Shown: piece by piece, positions 863-11,249 of the stretch
Position numbering within the stretch: position 1 is the stretch's first letter
Layout of the letters: every line of letters begins with the position of its first letter
Source of the DNA: a virus
Lineage: Duplodnaviria; Heunggongvirae; Uroviricota; Caudoviricetes
IMG/VR virus record: IMGVR_UViG_2859793810_000003
Direction: 5' to 3' (one strand)
DNA length: 11,249 nucleotides
Made by a program: the position numbers and the translations under genes
Notes under the pieces: model-generated
The model's input: only the letters and a program-made list of their open reading frames with translations
Told to the model about the DNA's origin: nothing
The model's database searches: none

Positions 863-1169
863 CTGACATGCTAAAGCAAAAAATAGATGAATAAGTTGAG
901 TTGTGCATATGTAGCCTGACCGTCACAAAGTATATGGTGTCTGTACCAGTAAGATGATGGCCGGACTCTTTAAAAAAGAGCTGACCTGCACAATACAGGA
1001 TGGACTTAGCAATGGCTGCTCCTGGCACAAAGCGGACAGTGATCACCGTTCTTACGACTACTTTCTGACTTCCTTCGTGACTTGCCCTAAGCATGTTTGA
1101 AGTGGCACACTGAATTTGGCCACCTGAACAGAGGTGATATGCTCACCTCAGAACAACACAGGTGCTCCA

Positions 1170-2338
<1,169 letters not shown>

Positions 2339-2346
2339 CCACTTCA

Positions 2347-2397
2347 GTTGTAGTGCGATACTTGTAATGACATTTGTAATTACAAGAGGTGTAAGAC
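2347..2397 (+). promoter_or_regulatory. relBE operator/promoter region (relO-like TTGTAAT / ATTACAA inverted hexads) with Shine-Dalgarno AGAGGTG
   Basis: Sequence cTTGTAATgacatTTGTAATTACAAgaggtgtaagacATG directly upstream of relB; palindromic hexads seen in sequence. Precise promoter elements not determinable here. Confidence 0.5.
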
Positions 2398-2637
2398 ATG
2401 GGTAGCATTAACCTGCGTATTGACGATGAACTTAAAGCGCGTTCTTACGCCGCGCTTGAAAAAATGGGTGTAACTCCTTCTGAAGCGCTTCGTCTCATGC
2501 TCGAGTATATCGCTGACAATGAACGCTTGCCGTTCAAACAGACACTCCTGAGTGATGAAGATGCTGAACTTGTGGAGATAGTGAAAGAACGGCTTCGTAA
2601 TCCTAAGCCAGTACGTGTGACGCTGGATGAACTCTGA
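2398..2637 (+). CDS. relB: RelB antitoxin (type II TA, RelB/DinJ family)
   Basis: 79-aa protein MGSINLRIDDELKARSYA...RNPKPVRVTLDEL, near-identical to E. coli K-12 RelB as I recall it; stop overlaps relE start (ATGA overlap). Confidence 0.93.
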   Translation: MGSINLRIDDELKARSYAALEKMGVTPSEALRLMLEYIADNERLPFKQTLLSDEDAELVEIVKERLRNPKPVRVTLDEL

Positions 2638-2924
2638 TGGCGTATTTTCTGGATTTTGACGAGCGGGCACTAAAGGAATGGCGAAAGCTGGGCTCGACGG
2701 TACGTGAACAGTTGAAAAAGAAGCTGGTTGAAGTACTTGAGTCACCCCGGATTGAAGCAAACAAGCTCCGTGGTATGCCTGATTGTTACAAGATTAAGCT
2801 CCGGTCTTCAGGCTATCGCCTTGTATACCAGGTTATAGACGAGAAAGTTGTCGTTTTCGTGATTTCTGTTGGGAAAAGAGAACGCTCGGAAGTATATAGC
2901 GAGGCGGTCAAACGCATTCTCTGA
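2637..2924 (+). CDS. relE: RelE toxin (ribosome-dependent mRNA endonuclease)
   Basis: 95-aa protein MAYFLDFDERALKEWRKL...SEVYSEAVKRIL, recognised as K-12 RelE; translationally coupled to relB. Confidence 0.93.
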   Translation: MAYFLDFDERALKEWRKLGSTVREQLKKKLVEVLESPRIEANKLRGMPDCYKIKLRSSGYRLVYQVIDEKVVVFVISVGKRERSEVYSEAVKRIL

Positions 2925-2995
2925 ACCAAAGCATGACATCTCTGTTTCGCACCGAAGGTGACACTTCTGCTTTGCGTTGACAGGAGAAGCAGGCT

Positions 2996-3151
2996 ATGAA
3001 GCAGCAAAAGGCGATGTTAATCGCCCTGATCGTCATCTGTTTAACCGTCATAGTGACGGCACTGGTAACGAGGAAAGACCTCTGCGAGGTACGAATCCGA
3101 ACCGGCCAGACGGAGGTCGCTGTCTTCACAGCTTACGAACCTGAGGAGTAA
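2996..3151 (+). CDS. hokD: Hok-family type I toxin HokD (RelF), 51 aa
   Basis: Not in the ORF track (below length cut-off). Own translation: MKQQKAMLIALIVICLTVIVTALVTRKDLCEVRIRTGQTEVAVFTAYEPEE, a Hok-family membrane peptide; position downstream of relBE matches the K-12 relBEF arrangement. Confidence 0.85.
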   Translation: MKQQKAMLIALIVICLTVIVTALVTRKDLCEVRIRTGQTEVAVFTAYEPEE

Positions 3152-3220
3152 GAGACCCGGCGAGTGAGAAATCCCTCGCCACCTCTGATGTGGCAGGCAT
3201 CCTCAACGCACCCGCACTTA

Positions 3221-3250
3221 ACCCGCTTCGGCGGGTTTTTGTTTTTATTT
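3221..3250 (+). terminator. Rho-independent terminator downstream of hokD
   Basis: Hairpin cccgc-ttcg-gcggg followed by TTTTTGTTTTTATTTT. Confidence 0.6.
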
Positions 3251-3368
3251 TCAACGCATTTGAAGTTCTGGATGGTGCCGGAATAGAATCAAAAATACTT
3301 AAGTAGCGCGCAGGGATAAAAGGGATGGACCCCGAACAGGGGAGTGCTACTTATCTGGAAGGATTCTG

Positions 3369-3620
3369 ATGATGAACATCGAAGAACTGCGTAAAATTTT
3401 TTGTGAAGATGGCCTCTATGCTGTGTGCGTTGAAAATGGAAATATTGTTAGTCATTACCGCATTGTGTGTTTGCAAAAAAATGGGGCTGCGTTAATTAAT
3501 TTTGTGGATGCCCGAGTGACGGACGGATTTATCTTGCGCGACGGTGAGTTTGTCACTTCATTACAGGCATTGAAAGAGATCGGAATAAAAGCTGGCTTTT
3601 CTGCTTTTTCAGAAGAATAA
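3369..3620 (+). CDS. rem: Small prophage protein, Rem-like (Qin prophage rem), function unknown
   Basis: 83-aa ORF with Shine-Dalgarno GGAAGGA upstream; sequence and position (between hokD and ydfU-like gene) match my recollection of K-12 rem; symbol from memory. Confidence 0.6.
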   Translation: MMNIEELRKIFCEDGLYAVCVENGNIVSHYRIVCLQKNGAALINFVDARVTDGFILRDGEFVTSLQALKEIGIKAGFSAFSEE

Positions 3621-3686
3621 ACTCATCTACAATCTTGCGCGGGGCTGAACTCCCGCTGAGTAACACCGTGCCACCGGAGAAAACCG

Positions 3687-3887
3687 ATGGCACGCAACGC
3701 AAAATATTACAATCATGATAATTCGACCGTTCTTGCCCACACGCACGAGCGGTATTCTCACGCATTTAAGTCAGACTGGTACCAGCATCCCTCATGCACT
3801 GAAGAACAGGCCGAATGGCTTATTCAGTGTTACCGCAGGCGCGGATGCGAGGTTAAAAAAGCCCTTAGCCTCGACTACCGTCACTAG
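3687..3887 (+). CDS. Hypothetical small phage protein (66 aa, Cys/His-containing)
   Basis: ORF with Shine-Dalgarno GGAGA 8 nt upstream of the ATG; not recognised. Confidence 0.4.
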   Translation: MARNAKYYNHDNSTVLAHTHERYSHAFKSDWYQHPSCTEEQAEWLIQCYRRRGCEVKKALSLDYRH

Positions 3888-3966
3888 ATAATCTCCGTCA
3901 GGCTCCCTTACTCCGAACAGCCACCGCGTCCGTCCCGCACATTCCAGCAACGGATCTGGAGGTAAC

Positions 3967-5016
3967 GTGCGGGTATTACTTCGACCTGTTCTGGTTCCGG
4001 AACTCGGGCTGGTGGTCCTTAAGCCCGGTCGTGAATCCATGCCGGTATTCCACAATACCCGGGTACTGGTGGAGCCGGAACCGAAAAGCATGCGTAATCT
4101 GCCGTCCGGGGTCGTTCCTGCCGTTCGCCAGCCGCTAGTGGAAGACAAAACATTGCTGCCGTTTTTCAGTAACGCACGGGTGATTCGTGCTGCTGGTGGT
4201 GCTGGCGCATTGTCTGACTGGCTGTTGCGCCATATTAAATCCTGCCAGTGGCCACACGGCGATTATCATCACAGCGAAACCGTCATTCACCGTTATGGTA
4301 CCGGCGCAATGGTATTGTGCTGGCACTGCGACAACCAGCTGCGTGACCAGACATCCGAATCACTCGAGCAACTTGCTCATCAAAACCTGTCAGCATGGAT
4401 GATTGACGTCATCGGTCACGCAATAAGCGGTACGCAGGAGCGTGAATTATCTCTGGCTGAATTATCCTGGTGGGCGGTCCGCAATCAGGTGGCGGACGCG
4501 CTACCGGAAGCGGTATTACGTCGTTCGCTGGGGTTGCGTGCGGAAAAAATCCGCTCAATGTACCGTGAAAGCGACATCGTGCCGGGAGAGCAGACCGCCA
4601 CCAGCATACTGAAGCAGCGCACAAAAAATCTTGCGCCGCTGCCTCACGCCCACCAGCAACAGAACCCACAACAGGAAAAGACGGTGGTCAGCATTGCCGT
4701 TGATCCTGAGTCTCCGGAATCTTTCATGAAACGACCTAAACGTCGCCGCTGGGTTAACGAGAAATACAAACGCTGGGTGAAGACACAGCCGTGTGCGTGT
4801 TGTGGTAAGCCAGCCGACGATCCCCATCACCTGATTGGTCATGGTCAGGGCGGAATGGGGACCAAATCTCACGATATTTTCACGCTACCGCTGTGTCGGG
4901 AGCATCACAACGAGCTTCATGCGGATCCTCTGGCGTTCGAAGAAAAGCATGGTTCTCAGGTTGATTTAATTTTTCGTTTTCTTGATCACGCCTTTGCAAC
5001 TGGCGTGCTTGGGTAA
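3967..5016 (+). CDS. ydfU: YdfU-like DUF968 prophage protein with C-terminal Cys/His (HNH-like) motif
   Basis: 349-aa ORF, GTG start preceded by GGAGG; N-terminus MRVLLRPVLVPELGLVVLKPG and overall sequence recalled as K-12 YdfU; C-terminus contains CACCGKPADDPHHLIGHG...CREHHNELH. Confidence 0.75.
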   Translation: MRVLLRPVLVPELGLVVLKPGRESMPVFHNTRVLVEPEPKSMRNLPSGVVPAVRQPLVEDKTLLPFFSNARVIRAAGGAGALSDWLLRHIKSCQWPHGDYHHSETVIHRYGTGAMVLCWHCDNQLRDQTSESLEQLAHQNLSAWMIDVIGHAISGTQERELSLAELSWWAVRNQVADALPEAVLRRSLGLRAEKIRSMYRESDIVPGEQTATSILKQRTKNLAPLPHAHQQQNPQQEKTVVSIAVDPESPESFMKRPKRRRWVNEKYKRWVKTQPCACCGKPADDPHHLIGHGQGGMGTKSHDIFTLPLCREHHNELHADPLAFEEKHGSQVDLIFRFLDHAFATGVLG

Positions 5017-5028
5017 AAGAGGTGACTG

Positions 5029-5385
5029 ATGCTCATAGATTTGGTTTTACCTTACCCGCCGACGGTGAACACTTACTGGCGACGCCGTGGCAGCACATAT
5101 TTTATCTCGGAGGAGGGAAAGCGTTATCGCCGGGCTGTGGCGCTTATTGTTCGCCAGCAGCGGCTGAAATTAAGCCTGTCCGGAAGGCTGGCGATAAAGG
5201 TGATTGCAGAGCCACCGGATAAGCGTCGTCGCGACCTGGACAATATCCTGAAAGCACCGCTGGATGCGCTGACGCATGCGGGAGTGTTAATGGACGATGA
5301 GCAGTTTGATGAAATCAATATCGTTCGTGGTCAGCCAGTATCTGGTGGACGTCTGGGGGTGAAGATTTACCCCATAATGCATTAA
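5029..5385 (+). CDS. rusA: RusA-family Holliday junction resolvase
   Basis: 118-aa ORF with Shine-Dalgarno AAGAGGTGA; motif PDKRRRDLDNILKAPLDALTHAGVLMDDEQ matches the RusA catalytic region (K-12 RusA has PDRRRRDLDN...DALT). Confidence 0.85.
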   Translation: MLIDLVLPYPPTVNTYWRRRGSTYFISEEGKRYRRAVALIVRQQRLKLSLSGRLAIKVIAEPPDKRRRDLDNILKAPLDALTHAGVLMDDEQFDEINIVRGQPVSGGRLGVKIYPIMH

Positions 5386-5399
5386 GAGCAGGTCAAAAA

Positions 5400-6221
5400 A
5401 TGAAACTGGAAGATTTACCGAAATACTACTCCCCAAAATCCCCTGGCCTGACCGATGCATCGGCCTCAACGTCAAAAGATGCGCTGAGTATCACTGATGT
5501 GATGGCCGCGCAGGGCATGACACAGAATCGGGCTGAGATGGGTTTTTCTGCGTTCCTGGGGAAAATGGGCATCAGTATGAATGACAGGGCGCGGGCAACA
5601 GAATTACTGGCAGATTATGCACTCAGTCGGTGCGATCGTGTGGCGGCGTTGAGAAAACTTCCGGCAGAAATAAAACCGGTAGTGATGCGCATTATGGCTT
5701 CGTACGCTTTTGAGGATTATGCCCGCAGCGCAGCGAGTAAAAAGCAGTGCCCTTGTTGCTATGGGGAAAAATTTATTGAAAGCATAGTTTTTACAAACAA
5801 GATCCAGTATCCGGATGGTAAGCCGCCGGTATGGGCAAAGTGTACGAAAGGTGTGTATCCGTTTTACTGGGAAGAATGGAAAAAAGTCAGGGAGGTGGTA
5901 AAAGTTGCCTGTCCGGAGTGTGGCGGAAAGGGTGAGGTTTCCACCGCCTGTAAGGATTGCCGTGGGCGTGGTGTCGCCATTCATCGTGAAGAGTCGGTAA
6001 AACGTGGTATGCCTGTTATCAGAGACTGCCAGCGTTGTGGTGGTCGTGGCTATGAAAGACTACCATCAACGGAGGCATTTAATGCTATATGCGAGGTGAC
6101 AAACCAGATAACACGCGCGTCATGGGAAAAAACAGTTAAGAAATTTTATGATGCGCTGGTGACCCGGTTTGATATTGAAGAAGCATGGGCTGAGCGGCAG
6201 TTAAAAAAGGTAACTAGGTAA
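5400..6221 (+). CDS. Late-gene antiterminator Q-like protein (QuuQ-like), carrying four CxxCxGxG zinc-finger repeats
   Basis: 273-aa ORF positioned between rusA and a PR'/tR'-like module, as for Q in lambdoid phages; N-terminus resembles my recollection of K-12 QuuQ; four CxxCxGxx motifs (CPCCYGEK, CPECGGKG, CKDCRGRG, CQRCGGRG) seen in the translation. Confidence 0.7.
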   Translation: MKLEDLPKYYSPKSPGLTDASASTSKDALSITDVMAAQGMTQNRAEMGFSAFLGKMGISMNDRARATELLADYALSRCDRVAALRKLPAEIKPVVMRIMASYAFEDYARSAASKKQCPCCYGEKFIESIVFTNKIQYPDGKPPVWAKCTKGVYPFYWEEWKKVREVVKVACPECGGKGEVSTACKDCRGRGVAIHREESVKRGMPVIRDCQRCGGRGYERLPSTEAFNAICEVTNQITRASWEKTVKKFYDALVTRFDIEEAWAERQLKKVTR

Positions 6222-6254: not shown

Positions 6255-6303
6255 CGTCATAATGATGGGCGTTTTATGCCTGGCGTTAGAAGAGTTTCTA
6301 CAA

Positions 6304-6327
6304 CCCGCCGCTGAGCGGGTTTTTTTA
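6304..6327 (+). terminator. tR'-like rho-independent terminator
   Basis: Hairpin cccgc-cgctga-gcggg followed by seven T; lies about 50 bp downstream of the PR'-like promoter. Confidence 0.6.
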
Positions 6328-6365
6328 TTGCGAAATTAATTACGGACCGTTATTATTCTGCTCCC

Positions 6366-6441
6366 GGCCCTTTAGCTCAGTGGTGAGAGCGAGCGACTCA
6401 TAATCGCCAGGTCGCTGGTTCAAATCCAGCAAGGGCCACCA
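6366..6441 (+). tRNA. ileZ: tRNA-Ile2 (anticodon CAU, lysidine-type), phage-borne ileZ-like
   Basis: 76-nt cloverleaf folded by hand: acceptor GGCCCTT/AAGGGCC, D-stem GCTC/GAGC, anticodon loop CTCATAA (CAT at 6399-6401), T-loop TTCAAAT, 3' CCA encoded. Sequence much closer to E. coli ileX than to Met tRNAs as I recall them. Confidence 0.85.
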
Positions 6442-6542
6442 TCACAAACCGCCATTAGCTTATCAGGAAGAGCAGACGACACGATAACAGGGTTGTTGGT
6501 GCGGGGGGCGGGTCCCCGATGGCGGTCCATTATCGGTATTCA

Positions 6543-6619
6543 GCGTTGTTAGCTCAGCCGGACAGAGCAATTGCCTTCTAAGCAATCGGTCACTGGTTCG
6601 AATCCAGTACAGCGCGCCA
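6543..6619 (+). tRNA. tRNA-Arg (anticodon UCU, reads AGA)
   Basis: 77-nt cloverleaf folded by hand: acceptor GCGTTGT/ACAGCGC, anticodon stem ATTGC/GCAAT, loop CTTCTAA (TCT at 6577-6579), T-loop TTCGAAT, CCA encoded; similar to argU. Confidence 0.85.
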
Positions 6620-6729
6620 TATTCATTCTTCCAGATTCCTTCCGGCAGAGCCTTATACTGAAATATACCTGGCTCAGGATATTGTTGAAAATATTATATA
6701 TTTGTCAAAAATAAAAGTTCTGTTAAGTA

Positions 6730-7083
6730 TTGATTGAGTATTTGTTATACGGTCTAATGGTTTTTTCAGCATTAAGTATTTATCATTCATATGGTGTGGG
6801 TAGAGTGAATATTGATGAGGCGTCGGGGTGTTTCATCCTTAGGCAGCGTATTGATATAGTCAATGCAGCACGAGCAAAGGCCTTCAGCCGTTTGACAGTT
6901 TTGTTCTGTACTCCTGATCGTCTTTCGGGAAGAGACGTTATTATTCTGAATAGTGATGCTATACAGAGGGTTTGCGATGAGTTCATGGTTGCTAATTCAG
7001 AATTATTTGCTCTTGTTCAGGAGTACAACAGAATAGCCAGGACCTGTGGTATGGATGAACTTCGGATTACTCATCTGGGGTAG
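6730..7083 (+). CDS. Hypothetical protein in cargo region (117 aa from a TTG start; first in-frame ATG at 6757)
   Basis: Only the open frame supports this; no convincing Shine-Dalgarno; visibly AT-rich; contains several AGA/AGG/ATA codons. Not recognised. Confidence 0.3.
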   Translation: MIEYLLYGLMVFSALSIYHSYGVGRVNIDEASGCFILRQRIDIVNAARAKAFSRLTVLFCTPDRLSGRDVIILNSDAIQRVCDEFMVANSELFALVQEYNRIARTCGMDELRITHLG

Positions 7084-7475
7084 ATACATATCTGGATTAT
7101 CACCTGTTACGGTAAAAAGTGATTGCTTACTGTTTTTGTTAATGGCATTGCAGCAGCCGGATAATGTCAGTGCCGGCTGACGGTGTGCTGGTGGCGGGTG
7201 TGGTGGTTGTTGCTTTCCCGTTGCTGAAAAAGAAAACGCCAGACTGTTAGCCGGGTATCAGTTAGCGGGAGAAATTTTTAAATACTTCACAATTCAGGCG
7301 GTTGACTGTTGTCTGGTTTGCGGGGAGTTTGTTAAAAGAAACTGGCATGGTGAATCCCCCTGTGCGGAGGGGCAATCAGCGAGTAGGTATATGGGATAAT
7401 CGCGGATTCAGGTGCTGGTACTGAATTCACCGGGAGGCACCCGGCACCATGGAATGGCACATAGCGCCACTCTCC

Positions 7476-7510
7476 AGCCCCTCTCCGGAGGGGCTGTTTA
7501 TATTGATTTT
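7476..7510 (+). terminator. Rho-independent terminator (perfect 8-bp stem)
   Basis: agcccctc-tccg-gaggggct followed by GTTTATATTGATTTT. Confidence 0.55.
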
Positions 7511-7530
7511 GTCAGATGTGAGTAAACTCC

Positions 7531-7866
7531 TTATGGACTTTGTTGTTTTAGTCCATAAGGGCATATTTGCAGAGTGCAACGGTTATTAAAGCATTCATTC
7601 AATACGTTATCTGTATTTGTAGGGCATTCCTGGCTGTTTTTGATTAAATTCCAGAATGTTTTATTGAATGGTACTACGTTGTAAATGGTTACAGGTAGCA
7701 CTTTGTTATTGAGCATGATGCCTGTGTGAGTCAGTGTAAATATACTTTCAGGAGGTAAGAAAGCATCCGATTGATACCAGATTATTAATTTTATTTTACT
7801 CCATATGACTGAAAAAGATATTCCGCATGATGGCTGGATAACTGTATCAATCACAATCCACTTCAT
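7531..7866 (-). CDS. Hypothetical protein, opposite strand to the phage late operon (111 aa, Cys-containing C-terminus)
   Basis: ORF with good Shine-Dalgarno (AAGGAA, 5-nt spacer, ATG) on the minus strand; AT-rich; a perfect 11-bp inverted repeat (7529-7560) overlaps its stop codon. Not recognised. Confidence 0.45.
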
Positions 7867-8110
7867 TTAGTTTCCTTGTTTATGCCTTGCTGGTGATGTT
7901 CTGAAAAGTATAAATGATATTTTTGAATTAAACCATAGAACAGAATTATTTTTCTGATGTTGTTTATTGTTTATTTAAATGCAGGGTGGTTTATATCTCG
8001 TCTTGTAGTTTATCCATGCATATCTGCTTGATAATCAGGTTTTTATTTAAGGTATGGTTTTGTGTTTTTTCTGTATTACATGTCAGGTATTTTAAAGAAT
8101 TATTTTTCAG

Positions 8111-8314
8111 ATGTTGGAAAGAACCATGGCATTTAAACACTATGATGTTGTCAGGGCGGCGCCGCCGTCAGATCTTGCGGAAAAGCTGACACATAAACTG
8201 AAAGAGGGCTGGCAGCCGTTTGGTAGTCCGGTGGCCATAACCCCTTATACCCTGATGCAGGCGATTGCAGCAGAAGGTGATGTGGTGGTCAGTGGTGCAA
8301 CTGAGCCGGAGTGA
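8111..8314 (+). CDS. Small conserved lambdoid late-region protein (family uncertain); likely start at ATG 8126
   Basis: ORF MAFKHYDVVRAAPPSDLAEKLTHKLKEGWQPFGSPVAITPYTLMQAIAAEGDVVVSGATEPE with GGAAAG 4 nt before the 8126 ATG; sequence feels familiar from E. coli prophages but I cannot name the family reliably. Confidence 0.5.
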   Translation: MLERTMAFKHYDVVRAAPPSDLAEKLTHKLKEGWQPFGSPVAITPYTLMQAIAAEGDVVVSGATEPE

Positions 8315-8556
8315 TACTACGTCATCGTACTGGCCCGGCATTCCAGGCCATAAAAGACAGTCTGGCAGTGGGACTAAATGCACTGACGCTGACGGATATT
8401 ACCAAAAATGCAACGTATGGCGTTGAGATAGAAAGTCTGGTGCTGGAGATAAATGCACCGGCATCATCATAAAAAGTGAGCCAGTCAAATGGAAGGTATC
8501 GTTAAACTCACCGGTAGTGTCAGTGGGTCGTCTGAGACGCTTGCATGAGTTATCAG

Positions 8557-8588
8557 AGCCATCAGTAGTTAACTGGTGGCTTTTTTAT
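8557..8588 (+). terminator. Putative rho-independent terminator upstream of the holin gene
   Basis: agccatcag-tagttaa-ctggtggct (one mismatch) followed by TTTTTTATTG. Confidence 0.45.
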
Positions 8589-8621
8589 TGTTGTCAGCTT
8601 CCGGATAACGGGAGACGGGGT

Positions 8622-8782
8622 ATGGACCAGATGGAAAAAATCACAACAGGTGTGTCATACACCACGTCAGCGGTGGGAACGGGCTACTGGTTCCTGCAGT
8701 TGCTGGACAGGGTTTCCCCGTCTCAGTGGGCGGCAATAGGCGTGCTGGGGAGTCTGCTGTTTGGGCTGCTGACATATCTGAC
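8622..8782 (+). pseudogene. Phage-21-type pinholin (S21 family) gene, 3'-truncated by IS insertion; dual-start motif M-D-Q-M
   Basis: [54 protein letters not shown] resembles S21 pinholin ([45 protein letters not shown]... as recalled); Shine-Dalgarno GGAGA upstream; the reading frame runs into the IS600-like right end at 8783 and terminates after 6 IS-derived codons. Confidence 0.8.
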
Positions 8783-9731
8783 TGAGGTGTACTGGCAATA
8801 GCGGACACTACCATTTGTTCTTTTTTTAAGCAGCCATCTGATGATATTTTTCCCTGAAGGCTGCCGGGGAGATATTCCCCAGACGAGAGTGACGACGCTG
8901 ACGATTGTAGAAAATCTCAATGTATTCCCGTATTACTGAGATGGCTTCATCCCGGTTATTAAAACGATAGTGGCTCAGGCTCTCATTTTTCAGCGTTCCC
9001 CAGAAGCTTTCCATCGGAGCGTTGTCGTAACAGTTACCTTTACGCGACATTGATGTTTTCAGACCAGACTGCTCCTGTATGACCCGGTAATCGTATGCGC
9101 AGTACTGTGAACCTCGATCAGAGTGGTGGATTAGCCCGGCAGGTGGGCGCTGGCTCCTGAGCGCCATAAACAGGGCTTTACCTGTCAGCTCTTTTGTCAT
9201 GCGCTCTCCCATGGCGTAGCCGACAATTTCACACGTATAAACATCTTTGATGCCAGCGAGGTACAACCATCCCTCCTGTGTGGCAACATACGTCAGGTCC
9301 GCCACCCAGACCTGATTTGGTGCTGTAGGAGCGAACGTCTGGTTCAGCAGATTTGGCGCAACTGGCAGATTGTGGTTCGGGTTCGTAGTCGCTCTGAACT
9401 TGCGTTTCTGCTTACAGCGTAGCCTCAGCTCCTTACGAAGACGTGCCAGTCGGTCACGACCAACGATGATGCCATTCTCTGCCAGCTCCGTCTGGAGCCG
9501 CCGGGTTCCATATGTTTCGCGAGTGCGGATATGTGCCACCTTAATCTCCGGTTTTAGCCGCTCATCACTTTGTTTTCTGTCTGAGGGTTCATGCTGTACC
9601 CAGTTGTAATAACCGCTCCTGGATACACCAAATACCTGACACATCGCTTCAATGGGAAATTGTTGTCGCCATTGTTCGATTAACGCGTATTTTTCAGCGA
9701 CTCCTGTGCAAAATACGCTGTTGCTTTTTTT
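8783..9731 (-). mobile_element. IS3-family insertion sequence (IS600-like), second copy, inverted relative to the first; left portion (IRL and most of orfA) missing, truncated by IS1
   Basis: Right end identical to the copy at 1-862 up to the CA terminus (reverse complement at 8783); the OrfAB reading frame continues upstream of the orfB ATG (…KYALIEQWRQQFPIEAMCQVF) and is cut at 9731 directly at an A-rich slippery-like heptamer. Confidence 0.85.
8826..9644 (-). CDS. IS3-family transposase OrfB (IS600-like), copy 2
   Basis: 272-aa ORF, one amino-acid different from the ORF at 1-819. Confidence 0.85.
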   Translation of the reverse strand: MCQVFGVSRSGYYNWVQHEPSDRKQSDERLKPEIKVAHIRTRETYGTRRLQTELAENGIIVGRDRLARLRKELRLRCKQKRKFRATTNPNHNLPVAPNLLNQTFAPTAPNQVWVADLTYVATQEGWLYLAGIKDVYTCEIVGYAMGERMTKELTGKALFMALRSQRPPAGLIHHSDRGSQYCAYDYRVIQEQSGLKTSMSRKGNCYDNAPMESFWGTLKNESLSHYRFNNRDEAISVIREYIEIFYNRQRRHSRLGNISPAAFREKYHQMAA

Positions 9732-9746
9732 GGTAATGACTCCAAC

Positions 9747-10250
9747 TTACTGATAGTGTTTTATGTTCAGATAATGCCCGATGACCTTGTCATGCAGCTC
9801 CACCGATTTTGAGAACGACAGTGACTTCCGTACCAGCCTTGCCAGATGTTGTCTCAGATTCAGATTATGTCGCTCAATGCGCTGAGTGTAACGCTTGCTG
9901 ATAACGTGCAGCTTTCCCTTCAGGCGTGATTCATACAGCGGACAGCCATCCGTCATCCATACCACGACCTCAAAGGCCGACAGCAGGCTCAGAAGACGCT
10001 CCAGTGTGGCCAGAGTGCGTTCACCGAAGACGTGCGCCACAACCGTCCTCCGTATCCTGTCATACGCGTAAAACAGCCAGCGCTGACGTGATTTAGCACC
10101 GACGTAGCCCCAATGTTCGTCCATTTCAGCGCAGACAATCACATCACTGCCCGGTTGTATGCGCGAGGTTACCGACTGCGGCCTGAGTTTTTTAAGTGAC
10201 GTAAAACCGTGTTGAGGCCAACGCCCATAATGCGTGCACTGGCGCGACAT
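9747..10250 (-). CDS. insB: IS1 InsB (catalytic part of the InsAB' transposase, made by -1 frameshift)
   Basis: 167-aa protein ...[38 protein letters not shown]... recognised as IS1 InsB; overlaps insA in the -1 frame. Confidence 0.95.
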
Positions 10251-10444
10251 CCGACGCCATTCATGGCCATATCAATGATTTTCTGGTGCGTACCGGGCTG
10301 AGAGGCGGTGTAAGTGAACTGTAGTTGCCATGTTTTACGGCAATGAGAGCAGAGATAGCGCTGATGTCCGGCAGTGCTTTTGCCGTTACGCACCACGCCT
10401 TCAGTAGCGGAGCAGGAAGGACATCTGATGGAAATGGAAGCCAC
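10169..10444 (-). CDS. insA: IS1 InsA (transposition repressor, N-terminal part of InsAB')
   Basis: 91-aa protein [43 protein letters not shown]... recognised as IS1 InsA. Confidence 0.95.
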
Positions 10445-10499
10445 GCAAGCACCTTAAAATCACCATCATACACTAAATCAGTAAGTTGGCAGCATTACC

Positions 10500-11249
10500 C
10501 TGGTTGTAGACTTGTCTCAGCATATAAGTTGCTGGAATGATTACGGCGGCTGGTACGACACTGATCATATAAACCTGGTACAAGGCTCAGCTTTCGCAGG
10601 CTCCCTACAGTCATATAAAGGATCGCTGTACTGGAATAATGTGACCTACCCCTTCCCGTTGACGACAAATACCAACGTATTGGATATTGGTGATAAGACA
10701 CCGATGCCATTACCGTTAAAACTCTATATTACCCCAGTTGGGGCGGCCGGTGGAGTTGTCATAAAAGCGGGGGAAGTCATTGCCCGTATTCATATGTATA
10801 AAATTGCAACATTAGGAAGCGGAAATCCGCGTAATTTTACGTGGAATATTATTTCAAATAACAGTGTTGTTATGCCAACAGGCGGCTGCACCGTTGATAG
10901 TCGTAATGTCACCGTGGATCTCCCGGACTTTCCTGGAAGCGCAGAAATACCCCTTGGCGTATATTGCTCAAGCGAACAAAAGCTCTCATTTTATCTTTCG
11001 GGTGCCACCACTGACAGTAGCCGACAAGTGTTTGCTAACACAGCACCTGATGCAACAAAAGCATCGGGAGTGGGTGTCACTCTAATGCGTAATGGAAAAA
11101 TACTGGCTACGGGAGAAAATGTCTCCCTGGGGACAGTAAATAAAAGCAAAGTACCTCTGGGTTTAAGCGCAACCTATGGACAAACAGGAAACAAGGTTTC
11201 AGCCGGAACCGTCCAGTCAGTCATTGGTGTCACTTTTATCTATGAATAA
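10500..11249 (+). pseudogene. FimH-like fimbrial tip adhesin gene (chaperone-usher family), 5'-truncated by IS1; 3' end and stop codon intact at window end
   Basis: The frame is open from the IS1 junction; [17 protein letters not shown]...[24 protein letters not shown]...[12 protein letters not shown] aligns by eye with E. coli FimH (LVVDLSTQIFCHNDYPE...VVPTGGCDVSARDVTVTLPDYPGS...VQSIIGVTFVYQ); the signal peptide and start of the lectin domain are missing. Confidence 0.8.

Follow-up and report, generated by a model that had tools for sequence, protein, structure and literature searches.

A class II holin gene truncated by IS600 in a Qin-type prophage remnant of a Shigella flexneri-type genome

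What is left of a holin gene, and of the lysis module to which it belonged, when its reading frame runs into an insertion sequence (IS)? The question is raised by an 11,249-nucleotide stretch of DNA assigned to the Caudoviricetes (IMG/VR record IMGVR_UViG_2859793810_000003), here called the window, which carries a short open reading frame (ORF) of 59 codons on the plus strand at positions 8622 to 8801. The ORF has in-frame ATG codons at 8622, the start, and at 8631, a Shine-Dalgarno-like GGGAG at 8610 to 8614, and a TAG stop codon at 8799 to 8801. A first-pass annotation, made without database searches, had assigned it to the S21-type holins, after gene S of phage 21, and the assignment was borne out by profile and DNA comparison. 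The product matched Pfam family PF04971 (Phage_holin_2_1; Bacteriophage P21 holin S) at 83.3 bits with an E value of 1.2e-23, the score cut-off being 26 bits. Moreover, the 303 bases from 8480 to 8782 were found at 100% identity in the prophages of many E. coli chromosomes, which label the gene "class II holin family protein"; the same query found matches in 2435 of 5426 E. coli complete genomes, with 857 records at 99% identity or higher. We conclude that the feature is very probably a pseudogene stump, the 5′ three-quarters (codons 1 to 54 of 71) of an S21-family class II holin gene that was truncated by IS600 and whose lysis module is dead.

The end of the native sequence was located by pairwise DNA alignment of the window to intact holin genes. 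The intact holin of E. coli YJ3 is 71 residues long with the N terminus MDQMEK, and the 3′ end of the intact gene reads AACCTGTATTTCAAAATCAGAGAGGACCG... / AACCTGTATTTCAAAATCAGAGAGGACCGTCGTAAGGCTGCACGGGGAGAG. Identity continued through position 8783 and no relatedness was found beyond it; the last native codon is codon 54 (ACT, 8781 to 8783), such that native codons 1 to 54 span 8622 to 8783. The sequence from 8783 onward, TGAGGTGTACTGGCAATAGCGGACACT..., is the right terminal repeat of IS600, and the codons for the last five residues, EVYWQ, together with the stop codon (8784 to 8801) are supplied by that repeat. As the T at 8783 can be assigned to either partner, the breakpoint is placed at 8782/8783, in agreement with the position at which the first-pass annotation had the frame meeting the right end of the IS.

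A complete holin gene of naturally short length, with an IS as a mere neighbour, could in principle give the same picture, as the ORF has a proper start, ribosome-binding motif and stop and as databases carry the 59-residue product as an ordinary protein. The 100% identity to 71-residue genes, however, vanishes exactly at the IS600 terminal repeat, and the five last codons and the stop lie within that repeat. The Pfam match likewise halts at profile position 54 of 64, having begun at position 1, and the non-partial members of the holin cluster, among those listed, are all 71 residues long. We regard a naturally short holin as next to impossible, and the reading of an IS600-truncated gene is retained.

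The interrupting element, which had been called IS600-like, is IS600 itself, as a related locus (L004) has a complete copy of 1264 bp whose imperfect terminal repeats, TGAGGTAGCCTGAGTTTAACGGACACT and TGAGGTGTACTGGCAATAGCGGACACT, start TGAGGT, and as RefSeq assigns the transposase of the E. coli copies, which are about 98% identical, to the "IS3-like element IS600 family". The copy beside the holin stump is partial, as indicated by its right inverted repeat at 8783, its ORFs, and comparison with the complete copy: it occupies 8783 to 9731 on the minus strand and represents the right-hand 949 bp of the element. Its orfB (8826 to 9644, minus strand, 272 residues) is complete, with HTH_21 and rve domains in the product, but orfA is present in its 3′ part only, and the copy is itself cut off by an IS1 at 9731/9732. 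The IS1 is 768 bp long (9732 to 10499, minus strand), is bounded by terminal inverted repeats at 9732 to 9754 and 10477 to 10499, and contains insA (10169 to 10444) and insB (9747 to 10250). A second IS600 copy, consisting of orfB and the right end, occupies 1 to 862 on the plus strand and is thus inverted relative to the copy at 8783 to 9731, with one mismatch between the two over 862 positions. The right end of this second copy adjoins ydfV at 862/863, and ydfV loses its 3′ end there. Its upstream part, and past that the truncated ydfJ expected from related loci, would lie outside the window. An apparent extension of the inverted repeat by 7 bp past the IS ends, to 869 and 8776, was rejected as an artefact of extension tolerance, as only 4 of the 7 flanking bases match.

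If the holin gene is a stump, the genes that normally follow it might still be present. In E. coli YJ3 (NZ_AP023226.1, 2.63 to 2.667 Mb; loci L001 and L011), the intact order is holin, a ydfR-family gene, the rrrQ lysozyme gene, an Rz-type lysis gene, iss/bor, and then head and tail genes, and the order in the Qin prophage of E. coli K-12 is likewise essQ, ydfR, rrrQ and rzpQ/rzoQ. The YJ3 lysozyme begins with MNAKIRYGLSAAVLALIAVGAPAP..., a weakly hydrophobic stretch rich in Ala, Gly and Leu that we take to be typical of signal-arrest-release (SAR) endolysins. The YJ3 prophage, the holin region of which is 100% identical to that of the window, was considered as an orthologue at the same site and rejected: it adjoins ompW/trp and not ydfJ, and its use is therefore limited to showing the module in intact form. 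The occurrence of an identical module at another site indicates that the Q-to-holin module is a mobile mosaic block shared across lambdoid prophages.

No ydfR, lysozyme or Rz-type gene was found in the window by ORF inspection and profile search. Downstream of the holin stump there are only IS600 orfB, IS1, and a 5′-truncated ydeQ gene, the next gene of the window beyond the IS elements, and the earlier statement that no endolysin or Rz gene follows was upheld. As neither an endolysin (murein hydrolase) nor a spanin is present, the lysis module of this prophage is dead, in line with the earlier description of a destroyed cassette. The further claim that the prophage cannot lyse its host would hold for this prophage only.

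To place the junction in its chromosomal context, the exact 59-residue product was looked up in public assemblies, where it was found in 1465 index blocks, and eight complete genomes or large contigs (L003 to L010) were taken with 10-kb flanks and compared with the window by BLAST. The eight loci were split evenly by the orientation of the remnant relative to its ydfJ and ydeQ flanks. In the first arrangement (L004, L007, L008 and L010), ydeP and truncated ydeQ, both reading leftward, are followed by IS1, a truncated IS600, truncated ydfV, relB, relE, hokD, rem, DUF968, rusA and Q and, farther on, by the holin stump, a complete IS600, and truncated ydfJ, which reads rightward into ydfI, ydfZ, ydfH, ydfG and dcp. 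In the second (the window, L003, L005, L006 and L009), ydfI and truncated ydfJ, reading leftward, are followed by the complete IS600, truncated ydfV, the remainder of the remnant up to the holin stump, the truncated IS600, IS1, and truncated ydeQ reading rightward into ydeP. Four junctions were common to both arrangements: truncated ydfJ with the IS600 left end, the holin stump with an IS600 right end, truncated ydfV with an IS600 right end, and IS1 with the interior of IS600 orfA. The shared junctions therefore point to homologous recombination between two inverted IS600 copies. We conclude that the remnant between the inverted copies is an IS600-mediated inversion polymorphism.

The order of genes indicated that the remnant derives from a Qin-type prophage. 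In K-12, dcp, ydfG, rspR, ydfZ, ydfI and ydfJ are followed by Qin, with rzpQ, rrrQ, ydfR and essQ and, farther on, ydfU, rem, hokD, relE, relB and ydfV, and the holin side of the first arrangement is co-linear with that order. Consistent with this, both the Qin-type order (ydfV, relB, relE, hokD, rem, ydfU, then Q and the holin gene) and the neighbourhood of ydfJ and ydfI through dcp were found, and the window aligned to K-12 Qin at 863 to 1097 (99.6% identity) and at 2349 to 5016 (92%). The left end of the complete IS600 meets ydfJ at a point 267 nt (89 codons) inside that gene. Mapped onto K-12, the segment that IS600 has replaced measures 8,405 bp and extends from the interior of ydfJ to essQ codon 55; the K-12 genes inside it are ydfK, pinQ, tfaQ, stfQ, nohA, cspI, rzpQ, rrrQ and ydfR. 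Moreover, no 3-bp target duplication was found around the complete IS600, which is flanked by GGG on one side and by GTC or CTG on the other. The absence of a duplication and the unrelated flanks indicate that the junction is an IS600-associated deletion. The first-pass annotation, which had the holin frame running into the right end of the IS, holds in both observation and interpretation and is refined here in that the junction comes from a deletion and not from simple insertion.

Simple insertion of IS600 into an intact cassette would have a different consequence, namely that the 3′ holin fragment, the endolysin and Rz survive beyond the IS or elsewhere, and that lysis could be regained by precise excision or recombination. 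Insertion by IS3-family elements normally preserves both flanks, and the left end of the copy in the window is hidden by IS1. In every related locus with a complete IS600 at the holin stump, however, the left end of that IS600 lies in the interior of ydfJ; in the flipped arrangement, the complete IS600 joins truncated ydfJ to truncated ydfV, again with no target duplication. No lysozyme or Rz ORF was found within 10 kb on either side of the remnant at the eight related loci. Because the complete IS600 runs directly into truncated ydfJ in the genomes with ancestral linkage, the endolysin, the spanin and the 3′ holin fragment were deleted from the locus and not displaced next door, and the prospect raised earlier of an intact cassette just beyond the IS elements fell away. 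We consider simple insertion very improbable and prefer the IS600-associated deletion.

The history of the locus may be reconstructed as three steps, of which the order deletion, large inversion, small inversion is the most parsimonious. An IS600-associated deletion, whether an adjacent deletion or the outcome of recombination between two IS600 copies in direct orientation, would have taken the 3′ end of the holin gene, ydfR, the endolysin, the spanin and the late region, and would have extended into the flank of the attachment site. A large IS1-linked inversion would then have placed truncated ydeQ beside the IS600 on the ydfV side. Lastly, a small inversion between IS600 copies would have produced the arrangement of the window, in which the holin stump lies at the IS1-truncated IS600 and is joined to truncated ydeQ. 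The surviving piece, about 6.6 kb in length and 7.9 kb here on account of a private IS911, would flip by homologous recombination through the second, inverted IS600. One co-linear deletion spanning about 50 kb, suggested by the series holin stump, IS600, IS1 and truncated ydeQ and by the K-12-like orientation of both genes, was considered and rejected, because related genomes have the ydfJ-to-dcp block whole on the opposite side of the remnant and the remnant in both orientations.

The IS1 side also varied between genomes. The 25 bp of IS600 next to IS1 (9707 to 9731) are kept in the window and L010 and are missing in L003, L004, L005, L007, L008 and L009, and a further 319 bp of ydeQ (10501 to 10819) are missing in L004 and L008. 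The differences look like successive IS1-adjacent deletions.

Whether the stump could still act as a holin was considered by comparison with phage 21 gene S, which encodes the S21-68 pinholin and the S21-71 antiholin, and with essQ of K-12 Qin (b1556). The gene in the window is like both in its PF04971 membership, its layout of two transmembrane domains (TMDs) and its position after Q, and its intact relatives share with both the placement of the holin gene before ydfR, lysozyme and Rz. It shares with essQ, in addition, the prophage and the chromosomal site at the ydfJ flank. Unlike either, the stump has codons 1 to 54 only, with EVYWQ in place of NLYF and a basic tail. Full-length members have about 68 to 71 residues, two TMDs and a basic cytoplasmic tail, whereas the product here has 59 residues and its native sequence ends at residue 54. 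TMD1 and residues W36 to T54 of TMD2 (19 of its 23 residues) are retained, and N55 to F58, the basic tail and the Lys anchor are lost. The frame had been described as intact through the transmembrane region, which holds for TMD1 and for most of TMD2, but the last four TMD2 residues (NLYF) and the basic tail are gone. The net charge beyond residue 54 changes from +3 in the intact protein to −1 in the stump.

The loss of the C terminus is likely to matter. Pinholins of the S21 type form small heptameric pinholes that collapse the proton motive force, and published truncation data suggest that this activity would be impaired in the stump. Systematic truncation of S21-68 indicated that the C terminus is dispensable only down to K56 and that the Lys is needed as a membrane anchor; K56 could be replaced only by Arg, and function was reduced or very limited with His, Glu or a hydrophobic residue in its place (FuN-screen preprint 10.1101/2021.04.20.440580). 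In S21-68 numbering, the native part of the stump ends at T51, and E52, V53, Y54, W55 and Q56 stand for N, L, Y, F and K. We infer, by analogy to phage 21, that the stump would encode a severely impaired protein, short of a proven null. The product initiated at Met4 is exactly 56 residues long, as is the minimal functional S21-56 module, but it is without the terminal Lys.

The two-start arrangement differed in one respect from that of phage 21. Met residues are present in frame at positions 1 and 4, as had been noted from the M-D-Q-M motif, but they are separated by Asp-Gln, whereas phage 21 and K-12 essQ have M-K-S-M. The antiholin character of the longer S21 product has been ascribed to its extra positive charge (PMC9636201). 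With M-D-Q-M, the longer product would gain negative and not positive charge, and the dual start comes without the basic residue credited with the antiholin behaviour of S21-71. Close relatives, including proteins 97 to 99% identical to the holin of Stx (Shiga toxin)-converting phages, begin with MYQM or MDQM. The two-start layout thus appears to be conserved in this holin subfamily while the defining basic residue is not, a feature of the subfamily as a whole and not of the window in particular.

A terminator-like hairpin with a T-run was predicted at 8555 to 8583 (plus strand), about 40 nt before the holin start, and falls within a spurious GTG-started extension of the ORF to 94 residues (8517 to 8801). 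The late antiterminator Q, the regulator that holin transcription would require, is encoded at 5400 to 6221 (plus strand), and a second terminator-like hairpin lies at 6302 to 6321, about 80 nt past the Q stop codon. Expression of the holin gene would require Q to read through both hairpins, and the remnant no longer has the early region of the prophage, from which Q would be driven.

The truncated product might nonetheless have been kept because it is useful, as a weak pinholin, a membrane-depolarising toxin, or a dominant-negative "antiholin" against the lysis of superinfecting lambdoid or Stx phages that have this holin too. TMD1 and 19 of 23 TMD2 residues are intact, the Met4 product has the length of S21-56, Q is intact upstream, and the allele is identical on 839 contigs. 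Identity across contigs, however, is explained by clonal descent in S. flexneri-type genomes, and no comparative signal of selection could be extracted. Moreover, Gln stands at the equivalent of K56, for which S21-56 accepts only Arg as a substitute, and Glu at residue 52; the early region that would drive Q has been lost; and the gene is preceded by a terminator-like hairpin. We therefore hold exaptation of the gene to be very improbable and favour a dead gene. A narrower version, in which the stump keeps a weak pinhole or dominant-negative activity that is switched on in trans when a lambdoid or Stx phage of compatible Q superinfects and that perturbs the lysis timing of that phage, has in our view only a slim chance of being correct; if true, it would be an accidental lysis-interference function encoded by a prophage.

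Nothing that was found contradicts the structural reading, and there are weak points only. The sequence relationships, the breakpoints, the missing lysis genes and the two orientations are seen directly, whereas the order of events and the loss of holin activity are inferred. The order of the three events rests on parsimony. The left end of the holin-side IS600 has been replaced by IS1 in the window, such that the deletion into ydfJ would be read from the related genomes. Loss of pinholin function is extrapolated from experiments on phage 21 S, a different allele, and, as the EVYWQ tail resembles the hydrophobic pattern of the NLYFK that it replaces, the stump may keep some residual activity.

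The origin of the holin allele could be narrowed by comparison with known prophages. No match to the 5′ part of the holin gene was found in K-12 Qin by blastn at E values below 1e-10, and the gene is therefore not the essQ allele of K-12. The Q-to-holin module of the window also differs from that of K-12 Qin, with only relB to ydfU aligning, at 92% identity. Over its retained part, the protein has 97 to 100% amino acid identity to the S holins of lambdoid prophages and of Stx-converting phages (among them vB_EcoS-716R1, VT2phi_272, Stx2 phage 86 and TL-2011c), which have MDQM or MYQM starts, and isolated phages such as vB_EcoS-640R1 have the same module of Q, iraM-like gene, DUF1737 and holin. 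Unlike the stump, the holin genes of the lambdoid and Stx phages are full length, at 71 residues, and lie within complete lysis cassettes. By sequence, the allele is one that occurs in lambdoid prophages, and it is near that of Stx-type phages. No stx gene was found in the window.

The lesion itself is already represented in the databases, in hundreds of Shigella genomes. The exact 59-residue product goes by the name of "Lysis protein S [Shigella flexneri]" (UniRef Q7UCH5_SHIFL) on the 839 contigs mentioned above and is also entered as "MULTISPECIES: class II holin family protein [Shigella]". The number of contigs indicates that the lesion is old and fixed and that it was already catalogued, without a fragment flag. 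The junction of holin and IS600 was present in no E. coli RefSeq complete genome and, among GTDB species representatives, only in CP178302.1 (L002), the locus of which differs from the window by 2 mismatches in 3.6 kb and by many indels in the ydeQ part. A literature search on Shigella, IS600, holin and prophage found no paper describing this junction. We conclude that the remnant is the Shigella counterpart of the Qin cryptic prophage, in an S. flexneri-type genome, and that an IS-generated holin pseudogene of this kind is ordinary and already known as a database entry.

The setting is typical of Shigella, in which IS1, IS600 and IS911 are expanded and are a major source of pseudogenes and rearrangements (PMC7373316, PMC8072062). 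Nie et al. reported one IS600-mediated and one IS1-mediated inversion between S. flexneri 5b 8401 and 2a 301 (PMC1550401). The remnant is like other IS-degraded cryptic prophages of Shigella, such as the non-inducible Stx prophage of S. dysenteriae 1 with IS600, in that IS1, IS600 and IS911 disrupt and rearrange the late region of a lambdoid prophage, of which a non-inducible remnant is left (PMC7819885, PMC7373316, PMC1550401). Unlike the S. dysenteriae 1 Stx prophage, it is a different prophage at a different locus, the Qin site at ydfJ, and is without stx. The importance of the stump is slight and mainly one of annotation hygiene, in that the 59-residue product circulates without a pseudogene flag and should be labelled as an IS600-truncated fragment. 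The locus also serves as a worked example of the dismantling of a prophage by IS600, IS1 and IS911 through deletion into the flank of the attachment site, an IS-bounded inversion, nested insertion, and small IS-adjacent deletions, all processes that are already well documented.

The rest of the remnant consists of truncated ydfV, relBE, hokD, rem, DUF968, rusA, Q, two tRNA genes, a small RNA (sRNA) gene, the iraM-like gene and DUF1737, which fits the earlier description of a domesticated or cryptic prophage retaining regulatory and cargo genes. An IS911 (1098 to 2346, plus strand) lies within ydfV and is flanked by a 3-bp target duplication, GTT, at 1095 to 1097 and 2347 to 2349. It was present at none of the eight related loci, and its insertion is therefore recent and private to the strain of the window. 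The genes relB (2398 to 2637), relE (2637 to 2924) and hokD (2996 to 3151), all on the plus strand, are collinear with K-12 Qin, and their ORFs are uninterrupted at 79, 95 and 51 residues, matching the gene lengths of K-12 Qin. Thus, toxin-antitoxin modules persist in the remnant while lysis genes do not. A DUF968/ydfU-like gene (3967 to 5016) and rusA (5029 to 5385) follow on the plus strand upstream of Q.

The interval between Q and the holin gene (6302 to 8314, with no strand assigned) carries cargo. It begins with the hairpin past Q and includes tRNA-Met(CAT) at 6366 to 6441, which is tRNA-Ile in the annotation of an E. coli relative, and tRNA-Arg(TCT) at 6543 to 6619; placement of tRNA genes behind Q is a layout known from Stx-converting phages. 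An STnc100 sRNA (7316 to 7505, plus strand) was matched over its full length in Rfam, scoring 124 bits where the gathering score is 47. The sRNA has a strong terminator hairpin at its end (7475 to 7496) and is convergent with an iraM/PmrD-like gene (7531 to 7866, minus strand), which is followed by a DUF1737 ORF (8111 to 8314). Beyond IS1, the 5′-truncated ydeQ gene, which encodes a FimH-like fimbrial adhesin, occupies 10500 to 11249 on the plus strand and was identified by a FimH mannose-binding profile and by 100% DNA identity to E. coli ydeQ. The profile match begins at position 35, indicating that the gene has lost the signal peptide and the first part of the lectin domain. The window itself starts precisely at the ATG of IS600 orfB and finishes precisely at the ydeQ stop codon, so that its ends were cut at gene boundaries.

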